Origin: Flavobacteriales bacterium
GTDB lineage: Bacteria > Bacteroidota > Bacteroidia > Flavobacteriales_F > PHOS-HE28
Assembly: GCA_016710685.1 (NCBI GenBank)
Contig: JADJVC010000001.1
Span: 72,948-136,947, forward strand
DNA: 64,000 nucleotides
Direction of reading: 5' to 3'
Shown here in pieces: positions 7,005 through 40,437 of the stretch. Position 1 is the first letter of the stretch. The number at the start of each line of letters is the position of its first letter. A program made the translations under genes and the position numbers. The notes under the pieces are model-generated. The model had not been told where the DNA came from, searched no databases, and was given only the letters and a program-made list of their open reading frames with translations.

Positions 7005-7066
7005 GGTGCGGTGTTGTTTGCCCATATGACAAACACATCGCTGGAAACCCCTATGCGGTCGAAAAA

Positions 7067-20766: not shown

Positions 20767-20812
20767 ACTGCGTTAGTCCAAGTTTTTCATTTTTCCTTTT
20801 GCATTTTTCATT

Positions 20813-21612
20813 TTGCATTCGATGAGCGACCCCATCAAAATCCCCACAATGGCCGAATTCGCGGCCAGCGGCGAAGTGCCTGAAGTCCTCTTTTGGGTAG
20901 GCTGCATGGGCAGTTTCGACGACCGTGCACGCAAGATTTCCAAGGCCTTTGTCCGCATCATGACTGCCGCGAAGGTGAAGTTCGCTGTGCTGGGGCAGGA
21001 GGAAGGTTGCACCGGCGACCCTGCGCGTAGGGCCGGCAACGAGTTTCTGTTCCAGATGCAAGCCTTGCAGAACGTCACCGTGCTGAACGGCTACGGCGTG
21101 AAGCGCATCGTAACCGCGTGCCCGCACTGCTTCAACACCATCAAGAACGAATACCCGCGCTGGGCGGCCAGTATGAGGTGATGCACCACACGCAGTTCAT
21201 CAACACCCTGCTGAAGGAAGGCCGCATCACCGTTGACGGTGGCAGCTTCAAGGGCAAGCGCATAACCTTCCACGATCCGTGCTACTTGGGTCGCGGCAAT
21301 GCTGAGTATGAGGCTCCGCGCGAAGTGCTGTTGAAACTGGATGCCGCACTGGTGGAAATGAAACGTAGCCGCGCAACGGGCCTTTGCTGCGGCGCAGGCG
21401 GCGCACAGATGTTCAAGGAAGCCGAACCCGGCAAGAAGGAAGTGAACGTGGAACGCACCGAGGAAGCCATTGATACCGGCGCGACCATTGTGGCTGCTGG
21501 CTGTCCTTTCTGCAACACCATGCTCAACGACGGCGTGAAGCACTTCAACAAGGAAGGCACCGTGGTGGTGAAGGACGTCGCGGAGCTGATCGCGGAGGCT
21601 GGGGATCTGTAG
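20813..21612 (+). CDS. CCG (cysteine-rich) domain (Fe-S)-binding protein, interrupted by a -1 frameshift near 21150
   Basis: Two CCG motifs (CPHCFN, CPFCN) split between ORFs 20813..21181 and 21118..21612. One base appears missing after 'gaatacccg', which would otherwise read ..NEYPALGGQYEV.. Confidence 0.65.
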
Positions 21613-27587: not shown

Positions 27588-28946
27588 TCACTCTTTCAGC
27601 AGTTGCGCCACGAGCCGTCGACCGCCGACCTGTGCCACCACCGTGTAGTGGCCGGGTGCCAATTGGGCTACGGAGATCCGTTCTGCGCCAGTCACCTTTA
27701 AAACTGGCCGGCCTGTGGCGTCCAAAACTGTGATCTGCGTTATGCGCACATTCTCCGGAAGGCGCAATTCCACTTGGTCTTCCGCAGGATTGGGCACCAA
27801 CACCAAACCGGTTCCGTTCAGGTTCACTTTGGAAATGCCGACTGAGCAATCCAGCGCATTGATGTGCGCCCAGATCTGGTCATTGAGCACCGTGGCTACG
27901 GGCACGGGGCCGCCAGCGGCATTGCCGAGCCGCACCAAAACCATGTCCCGGCTGGGCACCACGTTGATCAGTTGGTCGTCCTTGCCCAAGCCGTTGTATG
28001 CGTCCGCAGGCTCATTTGGCATCAACGGACCCTGAAAGACAAATTGCGTTTGCGGCAGCATGTATGTGGGCTGCCCGTTCAACCACCAGAGGTAGCCGTA
28101 GCTCTGGTTCAATGCTTGCGAGGGTGTGGTGGCCGTTTGAAAATACGCGGAGTCGTGCATAATGGTGTCCGTGTCCCACACCATGCGGTTCAACGCCAAC
28201 AAACCAAAGCGGGCTGCGCTGCGGGCCGTGCTCCAAAACACTTTATTGTAATCAGTCGGCAACCAGAAACCGTCCATTCCGATGGGGTTGCGCAACCGGT
28301 TGTTGAAATATAGGCTAAAGAATTGGCCGGTCGCATCAGCCACCACATCGTGCAATAAGGTGTACGGCGCATTGTGGTAAGCCCAACGTTCGCCGGGGTC
28401 CGCGAGGTAGGAAAGGCACGCGGGGTCCGTGCAATACACATCCCCGGCGCCATCGTCCAAGCCGGTTGTCATATTGAGTTGGTGACGTACCGTAATAGCG
28501 GCTTCCTGTGCCGGGGTTTCTGCCGTCCAGCCCGAGCCGAGATATAGTTGCGTTGGATCGTTGATGTCCAAGTAGCCGTCTTCTTGCGCCAAGCCGACGA
28601 TGGTGCTTGTGAGCGTTTTGCCCGCGCTGGCCCAATACCACAAGCTGTCCTGCGTGAAGGTGCCGCTGTAATGCTCCAGCAAAATGCGGCCGTGGTAAAG
28701 CAGAATGAATGCTTTGGTGCCGTTGGTGTCCAGAAAATTGTACAGCGAGTCGATGCGGTTGTTGCACCAGCCCAGCTCAGCGGGGTCGGTGGTTTCCCAA
28801 GTGCTTCCTGCCACGGGTGGCGGGAAGTAGGAGGTTTGGGCGTTGGATTTTTCCGCGTGTGATAGCAGCACGAAAAGCAGCAACGCGCTTAACAAGCATG
28901 GCACTTTCCGGAACGCTTCGGTAGCTCGCCGATTTTCAATCCTCAT
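27588..28946 (-). CDS. serine hydrolase (class C beta-lactamase/PBP-like family) with T9SS C-terminal sorting domain
   Basis: SxxK (ASAGKT) motif and CTD (VLVPNPAEDQVEL..GHYTVVAQ). Confidence 0.7.
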   Translation of the reverse strand: MRIENRRATEAFRKVPCLLSALLLFVLLSHAEKSNAQTSYFPPPVAGSTWETTDPAELGWCNNRIDSLYNFLDTNGTKAFILLYHGRILLEHYSGTFTQDSLWYWASAGKTLTSTIVGLAQEDGYLDINDPTQLYLGSGWTAETPAQEAAITVRHQLNMTTGLDDGAGDVYCTDPACLSYLADPGERWAYHNAPYTLLHDVVADATGQFFSLYFNNRLRNPIGMDGFWLPTDYNKVFWSTARSAARFGLLALNRMVWDTDTIMHDSAYFQTATTPSQALNQSYGYLWWLNGQPTYMLPQTQFVFQGPLMPNEPADAYNGLGKDDQLINVVPSRDMVLVRLGNAAGGPVPVATVLNDQIWAHINALDCSVGISKVNLNGTGLVLVPNPAEDQVELRLPENVRITQITVLDATGRPVLKVTGAERISVAQLAPGHYTVVAQVGGRRLVAQLLKE

Positions 28947-30405: not shown

Positions 30406-33400
30406 TTGGCATTGAATTGGTCAACAAATACCCGACAGCAGATGCAACTCCATAACCCCCTGAAGCGTTTCGCATTTTGTCTATTGCTCATTGCCCCGCT
30501 GCATGGACTCTTCGCCCAAGGCTGTACCAACAGCATTAAAAACCCCAATGGCTTTACCACGCCGGACACGTTGGGAAACGTGAAGGTCATCTCGAACTGC
30601 TCCTACACGAACGAGTATTCCGCAGTGGGGCCGAGTATTGCCGGACGGAGCTATAGATTCACGCTGAGCGGAAGCAGCGCGTACATTACCGTGCATGAGG
30701 GCACATCAGACGGGCCCATTATCGCGTATGGCCCTTCTCCAGTCACAGCGACGGCCACAGTGTCGGACTTTCTGTTCGCTCATTGGACATGGGATTCAGA
30801 ATGCACCTTTGTAGTGGGTTGCAAAACCTCCAAGGTAAAATTGCTGCTGGACTGCACCCCGCCGGCGGCCACGGTAACTGTAGAGGACAGTTGCAGCATC
30901 AACGCATTCTTTCTTAGTGTGAACATTTCGGACTACGGCGATGGCACCGGCTCGGATATCATACATACCGTGGACAACGGAACACCGGACACCCTGTTTG
31001 CCGCGCCGCTCGGCGTTTCTTTAATTGGTCCTTTCCCCCTGGGCAATCGGTGGATGTTACCGTAACGCACAGCAGCAACCCCTTGTGCAATGCCCAATTC
31101 AACGAAAACCACTCGAACGAGTGCCCCGAGCCCATCAGTTGCGGCGAGCCAACGCTAGTGGACAGCTATTGCTTCGGCCTCCATGACTACCATGAATGGC
31201 GTTGGCAGAACACCGACCCCGGCGGCACCGTGGCCTTGTTGTTCAATTCCGGCACGCTCTACGCGCCTGGATCCACCCAGCTTACCATTTATGACGGGAA
31301 CGACAATACCGGAGCGATCTTGTTCCAAAACCAAGTAGCAATGGACCTGTCCGACACGCTAATTCAAACCACGGGTCCGAACATGTACATGGAGTTGGAC
31401 GCGTTGCCCAACTATTTCGGCAGCTGTCAAGATGGTCTTTATGTCCCGTGGAACTGGACCGTGGGCTGCCTTGATTGTATTCCTGCAACTGCGAAGTATG
31501 AAGTGGTCACCGACTGTAACGCACAGACGTTCCAAGTGGACGTGCACCTCACCGACTTGGGAAGCCAGGCCCTGGTGCAATTGACCAATGATGCCGGTGC
31601 GCCCATGTTAACGGCCACCACACCGGGCACCTACACGGTGGGGCCGTTCCCGAATGACGCACCAGTAATTATTTCCATTCCGAACAACATCAATAGCCTG
31701 TGCAGCACGCATTCACCGGTGCTCACCAATCCGCTTTGCCCCACCTATATTCCGTGCGGTGCTCCCCCGGTGGACATGGCCTATTGCTACCACAACTTCG
31801 ACGAGCACTCCTGGCATTGGCAGTCCAGCGACGAAATGAGTTCCTTATCCATCGCCTTTTCGGCAGGCACGATTCAAAGTGCGATATGGGACAGCTTGTT
31901 CATTTATAACGCTGCGGATGATTCGGATCCGAGTACGCTGCTGTACATGCACACCATGATAAGCCAAGAGGATCTGGCCGGCTTACAATTTACTGCCGGT
32001 AGTGGCCATATGTTCATGAAGGTCATCTCTGATTGGATCGGTAGCTGTGACCAAGGAAGTGAGACCGAATGGGCCTGGCAGGTCGCCTGCTTGGATTGCA
32101 TCCAACCGCAGGCTGACTTCACGGTAAACACCGATTGCGACGCACAGCAGTTTACCGTGGACGTGCATGTGGGCGTGCTGGGTACCGACAGCACGTTGGA
32201 CATCACCAACGATTATGATCCACTAATGGTCACCACGGCCACGGACACCGGCGTATACACCATCGGGCCATTCCCGATCACCACTGAGGTTGTATTCACG
32301 TTGGTGAATGATTTCAACAGCCTTTGCAACTTGGTTTCCGATGTGGTCACCAATCCGCTTTGCCCCAGTTTTATCAATTGTGGCGAGCCAGCACTCAACC
32401 TGAGCTACTGCTATGGCAACTATGATCTCCATACTTGGCATTGGCAGAACACCATTCCCACCGGTTCCCTTACGGTGAACTTTCTTTCAGGAACAATAGG
32501 CGCACCAGGTACTTTCGGTGATAATCTGAAAATTTACGATGGGGTTGACAACACCGCACCGTTACTGGCCCAAAACTCGTCCCCACTGAACCTCGCCGGG
32601 GTTACAGTTCAATCCACCGGCCCGGACATGTACATGGAGTTGAATTCCTTGAACAGTCAAGTCCTGAGTTGCGCCGATGGACAAAATGCCCCATGGGATT
32701 GGACCGTGGGCTGTAATGATTGTGCGCCGGCCACGGCAACTTTTGCCGTATTGCTGGAATGCGATTCCAACAGGTACTATGTGGATGTCGACATCACAGC
32801 AATGGGTAGTGCTCCGGTACTCGAGATCATCAACGACAATGGCGCGCCACCTGTCAACGCCAACAGCACCGGTACCTATTCCGTGGGGCCGTTCGACAAT
32901 GGCACCAATACCGTGGTGACTGTACAGAATAATTTGAACCACGTGTGCAATTTGCTGTCGGCAGTGCTAACGGACGCGCTCTGCCCGGACACCTTGGAAT
33001 GTGAAGATGCTCCGGTTACAGAGACCTACTGCTATACAAACCACGACGATCACACATGGCATTGGTATTGCGCGTGCGGCAATAACCTGCTATTGGATTT
33101 TTCCGCAGGAACCATCGAGAGCTACTCATACGATCCTTTTTGGATTTACGATGGGCCGGACAATAACGCGCCAGTATTGTATCACAACTTCGGCGGTACG
33201 GACGATATTGACCTGTCCACCTTGTCGTTCCTATCCACGGGAAGCGACCTATACATGGAAATGTCATCCGATTATGTCGCGAGCTGCGAAGACGGACTAC
33301 AGGATGAATGGGTATGGACGGTGGGCTGCGATGGTACCACCGTGGTCAATGAAGGTGGAGCAGTGGATTTCGTGATGTACCCCAACCCGGCAACAAACGA

Positions 33401-33611
33401 ACTCTACTTACGCCTACCCGGCGATACAAATGGAACTACGGAGATCAAGATCCTGGATGCGGCTGGCCGGATAGTCCTTCTGGACAAATTCACTGCCAAA
33501 GGAGCGAACCTGAACACCTTCGACTTACATGGCTTGCAAAATGGGACCTACAGTGTGATAGTAACCGCCTCGAACTGGGTGAAAGCCCAGCGTTTGCAGG
33601 TAATCCATTGA
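30406..33611 (+). CDS. large Cys-rich tandem-repeat surface protein with T9SS C-terminal sorting domain (frameshifted at ~31036)
   Basis: Signal peptide; 5 repeats of ~210 aa (CGEP..YCY..H.W.WQ ... SC.DG..W.WTVGC.DC ... TDC.AQ.F.VDVH ... GPFP ... NSLCN...TNPLCP); Por CTD at the end. ORFs 30406..31065 and 31050..33611 join if the ccccc run at 31034-31038 gains 1 base. Confidence 0.7.
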
Positions 33612-33822: not shown

Positions 33823-36744
33823 TCACTCGCACTCGATCAAAACCTCATCCGTGAAAATGAACGAAGCATCACCCTTTCCAGGATGCCACGCCGGACAAGG
33901 CCCCGGATTCTTAGCGATCACCTTGATGTAACGGGCGTGCTTGTCGAGCAATTCCGTCATCATCTCCATCCTTTGGGAGCCGCCGGAATCACGGGGCACG
34001 GTGTTTTCAACCGTTGCGCTGCTCCATGTGCGGCCGTTGGTACTCCACGCGAACTGCACGCTTTCCGGGTACCAGATCCACGACCAAGCATCCTGCAGCA
34101 CGCTAAGGCCTAAGCGCTTGATCACCTTCACGCTGCCGAGGTCCATGGTGGCCACAACATCCTCGCCCAAGTAGCCCTGCCAGCCGCCGGTGCGCCAATC
34201 CTGCGCGCCGCGCACGCCATCGATCAAAGCGATCTCGCCAGCAGCTGCGTATTGAGTACTCCATTTGCTCTCCACGGTCATGGTGCGCGCCGGGTCCAGC
34301 CATGCGTAATGCGCCGTGATGACGGGACTTTTGTTGACCCCGTTCACCGTGATGGCTTTCAAGGTCGTAGTCGTGTCAATGGTGAAAGGCTCCCAGTAAA
34401 TGATGCTGTTTGGCGTAGGCTGGCTGCCATCCACCGTGTAGAAAATGCTGTCGCTGGGCCGCAAGGTGCTCAAGCTGATCGCCATCGGGCCGGTGAATCC
34501 TTCCGAAGGTGCCGTGATCACTGGAGAATTCGGGGGATACTTGCGGTCGTTGTCGCTCAATACTTGCATGGTCGGTCGCAGCATCGGGTGCACAGGCCGG
34601 TCGCTCGGGCGCCATTCGCTGGTGAGGTCCAACTTCAAGTCCATCCCTTTCATCAAGGTGGAATAGGAGATTTCCTCTATCAGCCCTTTTAATTCGTTCA
34701 GTTCGGTGGAGCCGATATACCGCGCGCCGTCCTGGCCGCCGAAGCACCGCACATTCACCTCGTTCCCGTTGGACAAGTGGATGCGGTACGCGTGGAACAA
34801 TGGCGCGTGCAGCTCGAAGCGCGGGTCGCCGGGCGCGATCTGGTAAAGGCCCAGTGCGCCTATCACGTACCAAGCGCTCATTTGGCCGCAATCCTCGTTG
34901 CCGCTCAGCCCGTCGGGGTCGTCGTGGTAGAGTTCGTTCAGGATGCGGTCAACCATCCGCTGCGCCTTGTCCGGCCGGCCCACCTGGTCGTACATCCAGG
35001 CCATGGCGTGGCTGGGTTCGTTACCGTGCGCGTATTGTCCGATCAAGCCCGTGATGTCGCTCTGGTCGCGGCCATGCGTTTGGTCTTTCGCGCTGAAGAG
35101 TTCGTCCAAACGCTGTTCAACACCGCCTTTGCCCGCATTTTTCAAAGCACGGTCCAAGCCTGCCACGTCCTGTGGAACGAAAGTGCTGTACTGCCAAGCA
35201 TTGGCTTCGGTGTAATCGAAGTTCACCTCGAAGGGATCGAACGGGCCTTTGAAACCGCCGTTATAGCGGGCTTGGAAAAAGCCCGATGCCGGATTGAAAA
35301 CGTTGCGCCAATTGCTGGCACGATCGAAGAACACGGTGGCCACGCTGTCCTTGCCCATGGCCTTCGCCATCTTCGCGATGCACCAGTCGTCATAGGCGTA
35401 TTCCAGCGTGCGGCTCACGCTTTCGCTCTGGTCTTCGCTGCTGATGTAGCCCTTTGCGCGCAAGGCGTTCAGGCCGGGTTCATCGCGGTCCGCGCTCGCC
35501 GTCATGGCCTTCAGCGCCAGCTCCGCATCGAAGCCGCGAATGCCTTTCAAATATGCGTCGGCGATCACGCTCACACTGTGGTAGCCGATCATGCAATCCG
35601 TTTCATTCCCCCAGAGCTCCCACACCGGCAAACGGCCCGTCTGCGTATAGATATCGAGGAAGGTTTTGATGAAGTCCACCGTGCGGTCCGGTTCCAGAAT
35701 GGTGAACAGCGGATGCTCGGCGCGGAAGGTGTCCCACAGGCTGAAAACGGTGTAAACATCGTGGTCCGCCGTATGCACTTTGCCGTCGTTGCCACGGTAT
35801 TTGCGGTCCACGTCATTGAAGAGGTAGGGGACGAGCAAGCTGTGGTAGAGCGCCGTGTAGAAAATGCGTTGTTGCTCGCGCGTGCCACCTTGCACTTCAA
35901 TGCGGCCCAGTTCCTTGTTCCATGCGGCTTCGGCGTTTTTTTTCACGGCATCAAAATCCCACCCACTTATTTCCGCTTCCAAATTCTTGCGCGCACCTTC
36001 TACGCTCACCGCGCTGATGCCCACTTTCACCAGTGTTTCCTTGCCATTGCCCAATTGAAGAATGGCCTTGGTGCTGTCGGAATGGTCCTTCAACAACGTT
36101 ACGTTTTCGCTGAACTGGATGCAGTAGAACAGCCGCTGGTCGCGGGCCCAGGAAGAACTGCTGCGCTCCCCGCAGATCTCTTGCGGACCGCTCTGCCGGA
36201 TGGAACTCCGCGTCAGCCGGTCGCGGTGCCGAAGATCCAGCACAAAGGAGCGCTCCTGCGGATTCGTGAAGCGATAACGGTGCATGCCCGCACGGGCAGT
36301 GGCCGTGAGTTCCACGTCCACATCGGGGTCGTCCAAATGCACCTTGTAGTAGCCGGCATGCGCTTCTTCGCGCCGGTGCGAAAAGTGAGAACGGTACTCC
36401 TCCGGCTTCGTGGTAAGGCCGCCGCTCAACGGCATCAGCAGCACATCGCAAAGGTCCGAAACGCCGGTGCCGCTCAAGTGCGTGTGGCTGAATCCGTAGA
36501 TCAGGCTGTCGCTGTAGTGATAGCCTCCGCAGCCGTCCCATTCCTGCGGATCGGTGCGCGTATCGGGGCTTAACTGCACCATGCCGAAGGGCACGCAAGC
36601 GCCGGGAAACGTATGCCCATGGCCGCCGGTGCCAACGAAGGGGTTCACTAGTTCGGTGGCGAAGTTCGTGGCCCATGTGGTGGTGTCCTGCGCGTGAAGG
36701 ATCGCGGGGGAGAAGAGGAGCGCGATGAGTGTCCTTTTGAACAT
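33823..36744 (-). CDS. GH92 family alpha-1,2-mannosidase with C-terminal F5/8 type C (discoidin) domain
   Basis: GH92 N-terminal and catalytic blocks (GGHGHTFPGA, GYHSVSVIADAY); C-terminal ~200 aa discoidin-like. Confidence 0.8.
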   Translation of the reverse strand: MFKRTLIALLFSPAILHAQDTTTWATNFATELVNPFVGTGGHGHTFPGACVPFGMVQLSPDTRTDPQEWDGCGGYHYSDSLIYGFSHTHLSGTGVSDLCDVLLMPLSGGLTTKPEEYRSHFSHRREEAHAGYYKVHLDDPDVDVELTATARAGMHRYRFTNPQERSFVLDLRHRDRLTRSSIRQSGPQEICGERSSSSWARDQRLFYCIQFSENVTLLKDHSDSTKAILQLGNGKETLVKVGISAVSVEGARKNLEAEISGWDFDAVKKNAEAAWNKELGRIEVQGGTREQQRIFYTALYHSLLVPYLFNDVDRKYRGNDGKVHTADHDVYTVFSLWDTFRAEHPLFTILEPDRTVDFIKTFLDIYTQTGRLPVWELWGNETDCMIGYHSVSVIADAYLKGIRGFDAELALKAMTASADRDEPGLNALRAKGYISSEDQSESVSRTLEYAYDDWCIAKMAKAMGKDSVATVFFDRASNWRNVFNPASGFFQARYNGGFKGPFDPFEVNFDYTEANAWQYSTFVPQDVAGLDRALKNAGKGGVEQRLDELFSAKDQTHGRDQSDITGLIGQYAHGNEPSHAMAWMYDQVGRPDKAQRMVDRILNELYHDDPDGLSGNEDCGQMSAWYVIGALGLYQIAPGDPRFELHAPLFHAYRIHLSNGNEVNVRCFGGQDGARYIGSTELNELKGLIEEISYSTLMKGMDLKLDLTSEWRPSDRPVHPMLRPTMQVLSDNDRKYPPNSPVITAPSEGFTGPMAISLSTLRPSDSIFYTVDGSQPTPNSIIYWEPFTIDTTTTLKAITVNGVNKSPVITAHYAWLDPARTMTVESKWSTQYAAAGEIALIDGVRGAQDWRTGGWQGYLGEDVVATMDLGSVKVIKRLGLSVLQDAWSWIWYPESVQFAWSTNGRTWSSATVENTVPRDSGGSQRMEMMTELLDKHARYIKVIAKNPGPCPAWHPGKGDASFIFTDEVLIECE

Positions 36745-36881
36745 TGGACGAAAATACGGGTTGGGGGTTCACCGCCAAGACGCTAAGCACGCCAAGGGAA
36801 CGCCAAGAAATGCAGCCGGTGAAATTTCAGAACGTTGCGGAGACGTTGCGTCCGTTGCGAGCGTTGCGGTTCAAATTCAAA

Positions 36882-37802
36882 TCAGATGGCGGTAAGCGCC
36901 GCAGCCCCAAGTATCGCCGAATCATCTTCCGGCAACGCCGATGTAACCAAGTCCACACGGCCGTGGTAGATGTTCAGCAGAAATTCGTTGAAGCGCTCCT
37001 GCAAGGGCACCATAAGCAAGTCACCGCTGCGCGCGATGCCACCGAAGAGCACGATGCGTTCCGGCCCCGTGATCGCCACCGCGTTTGCTAAGCCCACGCC
37101 GAGCCAACGTGCTGCATGGCGGAAGGTCTGAAGTGCAGCCGTGTCGCCTTTTTCCGCGGCGCGTGCAATGCAAAGCACACCTTCCTCCTTCAATACATCG
37201 GGATCTCCATCAAGCTCCTTGTACGTTTCCCGAAGCCCGCGAATGCTCACATACGCTTCCAAGCACCCTTTTCTTCCGCAGGTGCAATCGCGTCCGTCCA
37301 TCACGATGGTGGTGTGCCCGAGCTCGCCGGCATTGCCGCTGCTGCCCAGCATCAATTTGCTGTCCACGATGAAGCCGCTTCCAATGCCCGTACCCAGCGT
37401 TACCACAAGCAGGTCGGTCATGCCCTTGCCCGCACCATAGCACCATTCACCCAATGCTGCCGCATTTGCGTCGTTGCCTAACACACTGCGGATGCCGGTG
37501 CGTTCTTCAACCATACGCGCCAAGGGCACATCGTTCTTCCAAGGCAGGTTCGGTGCCTTTTCGATGATGCCGCTGAGCTGGTTGGCGTTGGGCGCACCGA
37601 TGCCGATGCCTTGCAACTGGTTATTGGTGGAAGGTGACTGGTGATTGGAACTGAGCCGCAGCGCTTCATTGGCCAGCGCATCCGCGAATGCGAATTCATC
37701 CGCGTGGCCCGTGGTGGGGATGCGCGTAGTGGCCGTCACTTTACCGTTCTCCACTAGGCCGATCTTGGTGGTGGTACCGCCGATGTCTATTCCGATGCGC
37801 AT
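36882..37802 (-). CDS. ROK family sugar kinase (glucokinase/mannokinase-like)
   Basis: IGIDIGGT at the N-terminus; Zn motif CTCGRKGC. Confidence 0.8.
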   Translation of the reverse strand: MRIGIDIGGTTTKIGLVENGKVTATTRIPTTGHADEFAFADALANEALRLSSNHQSPSTNNQLQGIGIGAPNANQLSGIIEKAPNLPWKNDVPLARMVEERTGIRSVLGNDANAAALGEWCYGAGKGMTDLLVVTLGTGIGSGFIVDSKLMLGSSGNAGELGHTTIVMDGRDCTCGRKGCLEAYVSIRGLRETYKELDGDPDVLKEEGVLCIARAAEKGDTAALQTFRHAARWLGVGLANAVAITGPERIVLFGGIARSGDLLMVPLQERFNEFLLNIYHGRVDLVTSALPEDDSAILGAAALTAI

Positions 37803-37957
37803 GGGTGAAGGTGGTGAACCGCAAATTGTTCTACCACTAAGGACGCGAAGAACGCTAAGAAAGAGTTAACCGCAGAGGGCGCGGAGAGCGCGGAGAAAAC
37901 AACAAGAAAATCGAGTGTGCCCAGCATTATCATCAATAATCATAACAATCATCAGTA

Positions 37958-39367
37958 TCAGCGTTCCATACCCAACGCCTTTCTACTTCCCGCAAAGCCG
38001 AACCAAGCCAAGTACACATAGCACAGCAGCGGCAACACAAAACTGATGTGCATCGCCGCGTCGCCCATGCTTTGCGACTGCAGGCCATCGATCAACAAGC
38101 CTTGGGCCAACGGGATCAATGCGCCGCCCAAGATCATCATTACCAACAGTGAGCTGCCTTGGCCGGTATCGCCTTTCAAGCCATCTATCGACAACGTGAA
38201 AATGTTGCTCCACAAAATGGAATTGAACAAGCCGATGGCCAAGATCGCCCATAGCGCCACCGCACCGCCCGTGGACATGGTGATGAGCAACAGCGCACCC
38301 GCTGCACAAGCAAAAATGCCGGTAACTCTGCCCGGCTTTCGCCCAGCGAAAATGAAGACGGCCATGTTCGCCGCGATCAAGACCGCCAATGGCCATAGGT
38401 GCTGTAAATTCAGTCCACCGCTTAGCCGGTTCACCAACCAAAGCAACGCGAACATCGCCGCGCCAACCAAGGCCAACATGCCATAACGCTGGATGCCGCT
38501 GAACCGGTCGCTTAGCGCCACCGCACCCAGGAAGCGGCCACACATGGCGCCGCCCCAATACAAGCTCAGGTAGTTTTTCGCGTCGCTGTGCGAAAGGCCA
38601 AGCACGCCTTTCATGCCTAAGAAGCCGATGATGAGGCTGCCGATGGCCACTTCAGCGCCCACGTAGCAAAAAATCGCGCCCATGCCATTGCGCAATTGGC
38701 GGTGCCGCAAAGCGTTCTGGCGGGCTTCCGTTGCTGCATGCGGCGGTTCGGGAAGCGCCGTGAAGTACACCCACACCGCCTGAAACACCAGCAATAAAGC
38801 GAAGAACGCATAGGGCCACCGCACCGCCGCATCGCCTTTGAACAGGTCGAAGATGAGCGTGCCTCCGATCAAAGGTGCCAGCGTGGTGCCCAGTGAATTG
38901 AAGCCCTGAGCGAGGTTCAGGCGACTACTGGCACCTTCGGCCGTGCCGATGATGGCGACAAATGGGTTGGCGGCGATCTGCAACAGCGTAAAGCCCAAGC
39001 CCAGCACGAAAAGCGCGGCGAGATAGAGCCCGTAAATGTGGACATATGTGGCCGGGACGAAGAGCGCACTGCCAACGGCACTCAACAGCAGGCCCGAGAT
39101 AAGTGCCCGTTTGTAGCCGATCTGCTGGATGGGGTCGCCATTCCTGCTGGAGTAAAGATAGTAGCCGAGCGAACCCAGGAAATACGCGCCGAAAAAGCAG
39201 AACTGCACCAGCATGCTCTGCCACCAGCCCAAGGTGAATACCGCCTTCAGGTGCGGTATCAGTATGTCGTTCATCACCGTCATGAACCCCCACATGAAGA
39301 AGAGCGTGGTGAGCACCGCCATGGGTTTGGCGATGGAGGGGGAGGGCGAACTGTTATGGTAAGACAT
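37958..39367 (-). CDS. MFS sugar:H+ symporter (FucP / glucose-galactose transporter family)
   Basis: 12-transmembrane-helix MFS with FucP-like N-terminus. Confidence 0.75.
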   Translation of the reverse strand: MSYHNSSPSPSIAKPMAVLTTLFFMWGFMTVMNDILIPHLKAVFTLGWWQSMLVQFCFFGAYFLGSLGYYLYSSRNGDPIQQIGYKRALISGLLLSAVGSALFVPATYVHIYGLYLAALFVLGLGFTLLQIAANPFVAIIGTAEGASSRLNLAQGFNSLGTTLAPLIGGTLIFDLFKGDAAVRWPYAFFALLLVFQAVWVYFTALPEPPHAATEARQNALRHRQLRNGMGAIFCYVGAEVAIGSLIIGFLGMKGVLGLSHSDAKNYLSLYWGGAMCGRFLGAVALSDRFSGIQRYGMLALVGAAMFALLWLVNRLSGGLNLQHLWPLAVLIAANMAVFIFAGRKPGRVTGIFACAAGALLLITMSTGGAVALWAILAIGLFNSILWSNIFTLSIDGLKGDTGQGSSLLVMMILGGALIPLAQGLLIDGLQSQSMGDAAMHISFVLPLLCYVYLAWFGFAGSRKALGMER

Positions 39368-39453: not shown

Positions 39454-40437
39454 ATGAAACACATTACACTTCTGGCCGCGATGGCCGTAACTACCGCAGC
39501 GGTCGCACAGCGCGAAGCTGCTCCGATGGGCCATTTCACTGCCCCGCACTTCCAGTTTAACGCGGACCGTACTCCCACGGACACTTTGGTGCCTGCCAGC
39601 TTTATGGATGCAGGGTCCACATTGACCGTGTACGGTGTAACCGATGGTGGTTATGTCGCTGGGACGAACGCATATGGCGATTTGGCCAAAGTGCAAAATT
39701 TCGAAACCACGGGTGCCGTCTTTGTTGAACAGATCCTGCTCGGTTTTGGCGCGAAAGACGAGAATGGCAGCCCGAACTCCTTGCTGCATGTCCGTGTATA
39801 CGGATTGGACGGTCCTGGGACCAACAGCCTTGGTGACGCGACCAATGCGCCCAGCACCATCATGGCCAACGTGGATATCCCTGTGAGTTCCTGCGACACC
39901 GCTGGCATCACCGTAGCAACCTTCAATCCCGCTGTTGCTGTCAACGGAGCCTTCGGAGCCGGTATTGACTTCACCGCTCTGGCAGCAGGTGTTGAACTTG
40001 GATTGATCACTACCACCGATGGAGACATGGGTACCGCGGACGACCAGAACTGGGAGCTGTGGAGCGATAACACTTGGTTCACGCTCACCGCAGCTTGGCC
40101 ATTGAACCTTGACATGTTAATCTGGCCAGTGATCGGTGACGGCATCGCCGGCATCAACGACAACGCCACCGTGAACAACATGCGCATGAGCTTCATCGGC
40201 AGCAACCCTGCGGACAAGAACATCACTGTTGCTTACGAAATGCTTCAGGCTGCCAATGCACGTTTGATCGTGCTCGACGGCAAAGGCGCGAAGGTGGTGG
40301 ATCAGAAATTTGGCCAAACCGCTACCGGCATGCACCAGTCCGAGTTGAACGTGAGCGAGTGGAGCAATGGCACGTACTACGTGTCCATCCTCGCCAACGG
40401 CAACCCTATCACCAAGAAATTGGTTGTGCAGCACTAA
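39454..40437 (+). CDS. hypothetical secreted protein with T9SS C-terminal sorting domain
   Basis: Signal peptide; CTD (ITVAYEMLQAANARLIVLD..GTYYVSIL). Confidence 0.6.
   Translation: MKHITLLAAMAVTTAAVAQREAAPMGHFTAPHFQFNADRTPTDTLVPASFMDAGSTLTVYGVTDGGYVAGTNAYGDLAKVQNFETTGAVFVEQILLGFGAKDENGSPNSLLHVRVYGLDGPGTNSLGDATNAPSTIMANVDIPVSSCDTAGITVATFNPAVAVNGAFGAGIDFTALAAGVELGLITTTDGDMGTADDQNWELWSDNTWFTLTAAWPLNLDMLIWPVIGDGIAGINDNATVNNMRMSFIGSNPADKNITVAYEMLQAANARLIVLDGKGAKVVDQKFGQTATGMHQSELNVSEWSNGTYYVSILANGNPITKKLVVQH

Follow-up and report, generated by a model that had tools for sequence, protein, structure and literature searches.

Organization of the locus

A gene for a cysteine-rich surface protein was examined in a 64,000-nucleotide stretch of DNA (the window) from the metagenome-assembled genome (MAG) of a Flavobacteriales bacterium of the PHOS-HE28 lineage (assembly GCA_016710685.1; contig JADJVC010000001.1, forward-strand positions 72,948 to 136,947). 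The gene is written in the window as two open reading frames (ORFs), 30406..31065 (219 aa) and 31050..33611 (853 aa), which both lie on the + strand, overlap, and are in different frames; insertion of one base in a short run of C residues joins them into a continuous ORF. Translation most likely begins with the ATG at 30442, which yields a 1056-aa product starting MQLHNPLKRFAFCLLLIAPLHGLFAQG; the same product is called in other assemblies. The two ORFs are a single gene, and it encodes a 1056-aa cargo protein of the type IX secretion system (T9SS) with a predicted signal peptide, an N-terminal domain (N0), four modules of about 207 aa that each consist of a B and an A domain, and a type A Por C-terminal sorting domain (CTD). 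A first-pass annotation had proposed just such an arrangement—same-strand ORFs fused by one added base, a T9SS protein split by a 1-nt frameshift—and the ORF check and the intact 1056-aa products found elsewhere agree with it.

The break falls in the middle of a domain, B1: positions 1-62 of the hidden Markov model (HMM) for B match in frame +0 (30856-31047) and positions 58-88 in frame +2 (31032-31124). As written, with this break, the window encodes an N-terminal piece without the sorting domain and a C-terminal piece without the signal peptide. By exact look-up, the 853-aa ORF was deposited as MBK8580362.1 and the upstream fragment as MBK8580361.1 (193 aa, locus tag IPL86_00545). These split products (193 and 853 aa) are recorded from one 429-kb MAG contig only, and they cluster with two intact 1056-aa proteins from Logan (short-read) assemblies and one partial NCBI protein. 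Scans for sigma-70 promoters and for terminators gave no excess over shuffled sequences. The deposited MBK8580361.1 and MBK8580362.1 are best treated as a single gene; this corrected gene model is the main value of the analysis, a housekeeping one, and the split surface-protein gene opens no long-standing question.

Intact alleles

A protein search recovered the 1056-aa product at a rounded 100% identity over its full length in Logan assemblies, four of which have the intact product called, and a partial, N-terminally intact copy that crosses the frameshift site is present in the NCBI MAG GCA_049290415.1. Four Logan contigs, each from a separate run, and GCA_049290415.1 were compared with the window at the DNA level. 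The five are 99.2–99.8% identical to it over up to 7.8 kb, and the sole indel in genes is at the frameshift site (31035..31039, + strand), where all five read GGTCCTTTCCCCGCTGGGC and the window reads GGTCCTTTCCCCCTGGGC; the other gaps are two compensating ones in a divergent non-gene stretch at the edge of one alignment. At this site the window has CCCCC and the five assemblies have CCCCGC, the missing G belonging between 31038 and 31039, and the intact allele, with a C-run four long, encodes GPFPAGQSVDV. The frame break is a one-base deletion private to the window assembly and is not a change in the length of a C tract. The first-pass annotation had placed a C-run at 31034-31038 and held that one extra C would fuse both ORFs; the run is there, one base further to the right, and the arithmetic is correct, but the base that the real intact allele carries is a G and not a sixth C.

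The same alleles bear on the suggestion, also made in that annotation, that slipped-strand gain or loss of a C switches an adhesin on and off. Surface proteins are typical targets of phase variation, and adding one base to the C5 run does restore the frame. However, the run is only five Cs long in the window and four in every intact allele, the five independent assemblies differ from the window by the G that it has lost, and no six-C allele is found in the six assemblies; with no such allele, and with the number of Cs not being what distinguishes the two alleles, the basis for slipped-strand switching is removed. Contingency loci typically have homopolymers of at least 7 nt, and neither a run of this length nor tract-length polymorphism is present here (six assemblies, two alleles); the lack of a long homopolymer in the intact allele argues that the frame break is no regulatory device. 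An exact-pattern scan of JGI metagenome contigs for the CCCCC or the CCCCGC allele gave 0 matches, and there are no inverted repeats suggesting an invertible promoter; a single 12-nt imperfect inverted pair, spanning the 5′ end of the gene, was found and rejected as a candidate. We consider a switch of this kind very improbable.

Restoration of the frame during expression is more improbable still, whether through −1 frameshifting of the ribosome at U_UUC_CCC (31032-31038) or through slippage during transcription of the C5 run. In the frame of the first ORF, T_TTC_CCC formally fits the X_XXY_YYZ pattern, and a −1 slip would read GPFP-PGQSVDV in the frame of the second. Against this, CCC in the YYY position is not known as an efficient slippery triplet, and folding of the 93 nt that begin at the site is no better than that of shuffled sequences (z −0.19). 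The relatives are all single-frame, with a G that interrupts the heptamer, and the slippery arrangement is therefore not conserved. Even taken together, phase variation and recoding leave little more than a slender chance.

Origin of the deletion

Sequencing or assembly error, which the first-pass annotation had offered as its alternative, is the best-supported reading, given a second 1-nt deletion private to the window in an unrelated gene. That gene, for a CCG-domain iron–sulfur (Fe-S) reductase, is represented by ORFs 20777..21181 and 21031..21612, which have one CCG domain each and are in different frames. Insertion of one base at about 21155 gives a repaired 263-aa protein that aligns unbroken across the junction with residues 482-741 of PDB entry 9ojn_A (E 4e-75), and a short-read Logan contig (L012), 98.7% identical to the window, encodes the intact 263-aa reductase and has its sole gap relative to the window at 21153. 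Within 64 kb, two unrelated genes each have a private single-base deletion that every other assembly contradicts. Residual consensus errors explain this best, and we infer that the frameshift in the surface-protein gene is probably a residual consensus indel error of the window MAG. The other adjacent ORF pairs of the window were also screened for frameshifts and yielded no Pfam evidence of one.

The string GCTGGGC follows closely downstream of both private deletions (31035-31046 and 21150-21165), which have a CCC(C)GC context. GCTGGGC was considered as a context for systematic error; the window holds 28 copies of it (about 18 expected), most of them intact, and it was set aside as uninformative.

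The deletion could instead be a real, strain-specific one that has left a pseudogene, the surface protein having been lost by ordinary mutation, perhaps under selection by phages or grazers. Of the two fragments, the N-terminal one would then be exported but lack a CTD, and the C-terminal one would have no signal peptide. Within the same species-level population, however, the gene is intact in all five of the other assemblies, and residual consensus errors account more simply for a second private deletion in the same window, one that hits the unrelated gene of a probably important Fe-S reductase. Moreover, both events are single-base deletions in a G+C-rich context, which is a typical error type of long-read sequencing.

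Several observations weigh against consensus error. Assemblies rather than reads were compared, and there is no assembly of exactly the same strain to contradict the window, in whose strain a real deletion is possible. The lost base is a G beside the C-run, which is not a pure homopolymer-length error. In CP065018.1, from another species, the sole indels in 17.5 kb relative to three other assemblies are two deletions in a paralogue, one of 2 nt that breaks the frame and one of 9 nt, which hints that real disruptions may occur in this surface-protein family. The window MAG may come from the Nanopore-based activated-sludge project of Singleton et al. 2021, to which its IP-prefixed locus tags and MBK accessions would point. 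The methods of Singleton et al. 2021 (PMC8012365) describe CANU assembly, polishing with Racon and medaka, and a single Illumina Racon round; no related accessions or locus-tag prefixes were found in the supplements of that paper.

CP065018.1 is a complete genome in which the 2-nt deletion cuts off the signal peptide and N0 region, and a 95-aa ORF precedes one of 1158 aa; the 9-nt deletion is in-frame. The two deletion sites are at 7007 and 8135 of the CP065018.1 locus (L013), and the assemblies used for comparison are L006, L007, and L008. Another homologue, P0056 (IPM46_06175, 1145 aa), when examined by eye, continues after ‘...AGDR’ with a non-homologous tail without a CTD, at a point where its close relatives continue ‘IVIYNG...’; this C-terminus has the look of a further frameshift, and its MAG belongs to the same locus-tag series as that of the window; the apparent loss of frame there also speaks for the pseudogene explanation. 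We regard a pseudogene as unlikely, though by no means negligible. Consensus error is the reading that we consider most likely, and an apparent frameshift in the window MAG needs the support of reads before it is given a biological meaning.

Domain architecture

The features of the repaired protein all lie on the + strand. The predicted signal peptide (residues 1-25; 30442..30516) was read from the sequence as MQLHNPLKRFAFCLLLIAPLHGLFA followed by QG. N0 (residues 26-137; 30517..30852) is a domain of about 112 aa with 5 Cys, predicted by AlphaFold2 (AF2) to be an all-beta sandwich (pLDDT 95.9). It is followed by B1 (residues 138-228; 30853..31124), which is Ig-like, is broken by the frameshift, and matches the B HMM in two frames, and by A1 (residues 234-346; 31140..31478), a CUB-like jelly-roll (A HMM E 4e-53; AF2 pLDDT 95.1). 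B2 (residues 347-433; 31479..31739), an Ig-like beta-sandwich, matches the B HMM at E 7.6e-42 and is the second domain of the AF2 model, and the CUB-like A2 (residues 439-553; 31755..32099) matches the A HMM at E 8.5e-55. The third module comprises B3 (Ig-like; residues 554-641; 32100..32363; B HMM E 2.8e-42) and A3 (CUB-like; residues 647-761; 32379..32723; A HMM E 6.3e-53), and the fourth comprises B4 (Ig-like; residues 762-848; 32724..32984; B HMM E 1.6e-40) and A4 (CUB-like; residues 854-964; 33000..33332; A HMM E 1.7e-52). The T9SS type A CTD, with the stop codon, occupies 33375..33611 (residues 979-1056).

HMMs built from the units of the protein itself recover four A and four B copies at E-values of 1e-40 to 1e-55, with a repeat period of 205-208 aa. 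The protein contains 39 Cys; when 58 diverse A-B units are aligned, eight Cys positions per unit prove to be conserved, six of them invariant, one kept in 98% and one in 76%. The internal repeats of the first-pass annotation are thus far beyond chance, and its motifs W.WQ, W.WTVGC.DC, TDC.AQ.F.VDVH, and NSLCN..TNPLCP are all present in the sequence. Its five equal repeats of about 210 aa have to be replaced by N0 and (B-A)x4, N0 being a distinct domain, and its estimate of about 10 conserved Cys per repeat by eight per unit of about 207 aa. The repeat family, which it thought might be undescribed, is so in that N0 and B have no dedicated Pfam model, but not in that the A half is a divergent CUB and the B half is Ig-like. 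The surface protein is assembled from known folds, and two of its three module types (N0 and B) have no curated family model.

By fold and by profile, A is classed here as a divergent CUB domain. A profile of the A-B unit matched cubilin (E 7.7e-8) and neuropilin-2 (E 2.8e-3) among PDB sequences; it also retrieves canonical multi-CUB proteins (PF00431 at 1e-175 to 1e-227), one of which has a Por CTD. An AF2 model of residues 230-439, covering A and B, has a pLDDT of 95.1 and a pTM of 0.81, and Foldseek, with the A domain of this model, returned 4gza_H, 2wno, 6gh8_A, 1spp_B, and 3pob_A at target-normalised TM-scores of 0.66-0.71 and a probability of 1.00. These CUB targets are neuropilin-1 a1, TSG-6 CUB_C, neuropilin-2 CUB1, spermadhesins, and MASP-1 CUB2, those of neuropilin, TSG-6, and spermadhesin scoring 0.70-0.71. 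In columns aligned to the cubilin CUB residues E, D, and D, which we take to be the Ca2+ ligands of CUB domains, E/D/D are kept in 67%, 90%, and 74% of units, respectively; only A4 of the four A copies in the window keeps the full acidic triad. Counting against the assignment, the 1056-aa protein has no PF00431 match above the Pfam threshold. Two of the 58 family units reach E<0.01 on PF00431, and some homologues have faint precomputed matches to it. Because the Pfam threshold is missed, A is called CUB-like by fold and profile and not a member of PF00431.

B, which carries four conserved Cys, is an Ig-like sandwich: B3 matches the Pfam family InlK_D3 (PF18981) with 26.3 bits (cut-off 25) at residues 558-608, and in the AF2 model of the A-B unit a 7-strand sandwich follows A. 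Proteins composed of long B arrays have no Pfam domain besides the CTD. N0 gave no Pfam match and no PDB sequence match. The fold matches to its model are loose (TM-scores of about 0.5), with PliG at 0.55 followed by carbohydrate-binding module (CBM) family 6, the C-terminal (claudin-binding) domain of the C. perfringens enterotoxin, and the collagen-binding/PPC domains of collagenase; the shape is one generic to binding modules. N0 is kept at the N-terminus of 95 related proteins and is duplicated in some other T9SS proteins.

Family and gene neighborhood

An exhaustive search with the A-B profile found 3017 cluster representatives (clusters at 50% identity) at E<=1e-3, and 489 at E<=1e-30. 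The family is confined to Bacteroidota-type T9SS proteins. Among 93 relatives, A and B alternate strictly in nearly all, and the full-length members mostly have the layout signal peptide-N0-(B-A)n-CTD with n = 2-6; further T9SS proteins carry the A-B module too, some of them with a type B (CHU_C) C-terminal domain. A scan of GTDB genomes with the protein confirmed no relatives. Some 3,000 clusters of T9SS proteins use a tandem CUB-like and Ig-like module, and they have in common an N-terminal beta-sandwich for which there is no Pfam model; Bacteroidota surface proteomes would be better annotated if N0 and B had family models. Many of these genes occur as tandem paralogue pairs, such as 1249 + 1416/1453 aa (L006/L007, 8001-16302) and 1042 + 1061 aa (L009/L010, 8001-14434); the window has a single copy.

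In the window a rhomboid gene lies upstream of the surface-protein gene. Downstream, and converging on its 3′ end, are genes on the − strand (33823-39367) for a glycoside hydrolase of family GH92 (alpha-mannosidase-type, 973 aa, with CHB_HEX_C/Fn3_assoc), a ROK-family kinase, and a major facilitator superfamily (MFS) transporter. At two other orthologous loci (L009-L011, L014), CutC-GH2 lies upstream and GH92 is close by. A 327-aa ORF with a Por_Secre_tail domain (39454-40437, + strand) is another probable T9SS cargo protein, and a 452-aa serine beta-lactamase-like protein (27588-28946, − strand) is probably a further one, its orthologue in assembly L005 having a weak Por CTD match. The presence of other CTD-bearing ORFs in and near the window is consistent with a T9SS organism.

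Predicted secretion and proposed function

The sorting domain is recognized by both PF18962 (E 7.6e-11, 42.6 bits, cut-off 27) and TIGR04183 (E 1.7e-9, 37.5 bits, cut-off 23) at residues 979-1052. At the other end, reading of the sequence predicts a signal peptide with a basic n-region, a hydrophobic core, and A-Q before the first Cys, and an AQ/QG-C junction is also found in homologues; the Por CTD of the first-pass annotation is upheld, and its signal peptide is a likely one. The predicted junction is A-Q-G-C (30514-30522), with cleavage between A and Q, and in nearly all homologues a Gln precedes the first Cys at a distance of one to three residues. The mature protein probably begins with Gln, and the junction would fit the ‘Q-rule’ of Bacteroidota, by which a Gln at the N-terminus is converted to pyroglutamate by cyclisation.

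Type A cargo proteins of the T9SS are exported by Sec and fold in the periplasm; the CTD is then recognized and cut off, and the new C-terminus serves to anchor the protein. We infer a similar route here, in which the predicted Sec signal peptide would carry the protein to the periplasm, the eight conserved Cys of each module would presumably pair there as disulfides, and the type A CTD would direct the protein through the T9SS, with CTD removal and C-terminal anchoring as in known cargo. The (B-A)4 array would then form a disulfide-stiffened stalk, with N0 as its exposed, membrane-distal tip.

The family-model scans of the 1056-aa protein detected no catalytic or lectin family. Arrays of CUB-like and Ig-like domains behind a CBM-like head suggest ligand binding or adhesion rather than catalysis, and binding or adhesion is the most likely role of the protein. 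As orthologues adjoin GH92 and GH2 genes, a glycan is a possible ligand. This view of function has its own difficulties, since it is drawn solely from folds and neighbors. Three of the six contexts examined have no glycoside hydrolases, the gene lying among housekeeping genes and sometimes in a tandem paralogue pair, and the arrangement of GH92 varies, being convergent in the window and at the P0062 locus and upstream on the opposite strand at the P0054 locus. With three loci set among housekeeping genes, the link to glycans is only a weak lead. A bolder proposal, which we think improbable, is that N0-(B-A)n-CTD proteins are an uncharacterised, lineage-specific family of ligand-capture proteins or adhesins of activated-sludge Flavobacteriales, with N0 as a new binding head and ties to the mannoside-degrading GH92/GH2 neighbors, and that the deletions in the window and in CP065018.1 are real and represent loss-of-function variants, at the population level, of an antigen or receptor exposed on the surface.

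Comparison with known systems

Poly-G and poly-C phase-variable surface genes of Neisseria, Haemophilus, and Campylobacter resemble the gene described here in that a surface-protein gene is broken at a C-run. They differ from it in that the run here spans no more than 4-5 nt, it is a G that distinguishes the alleles, and no tract-length series was seen.

Type A cargo proteins of the T9SS, such as the gingipains of Porphyromonas gingivalis and RemA and ChiA of Flavobacterium johnsoniae, have the same Por_Secre_tail/TIGR04183 CTD and a large multi-domain beta-rich passenger, and an N-terminal signal peptide such as is predicted here; the NCBI name of the second window ORF and of most named relatives is ‘T9SS type A sorting domain-containing protein’. 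The passenger of the window protein, however, is a strictly alternating array of Ig-like and CUB-like domains behind an N0 that has no family model. Compared with the CUB domains of PF00431 (cubilin, neuropilins, C1r/C1s/MASP, TSG-6, and spermadhesins), A has the same jelly-roll fold and a profile similarity that includes the ‘xIYDG’ strand, whereas its four Cys are placed differently (unit positions 5, 15, 100, and 114), and it is bacterial and fused to Ig-like modules and a Por CTD. B is comparable to InlK_D3 (PF18981) and to the NOMO1-like beta-sandwich (PF22902), although only one of its four copies, B3, passes the InlK_D3 cut-off.

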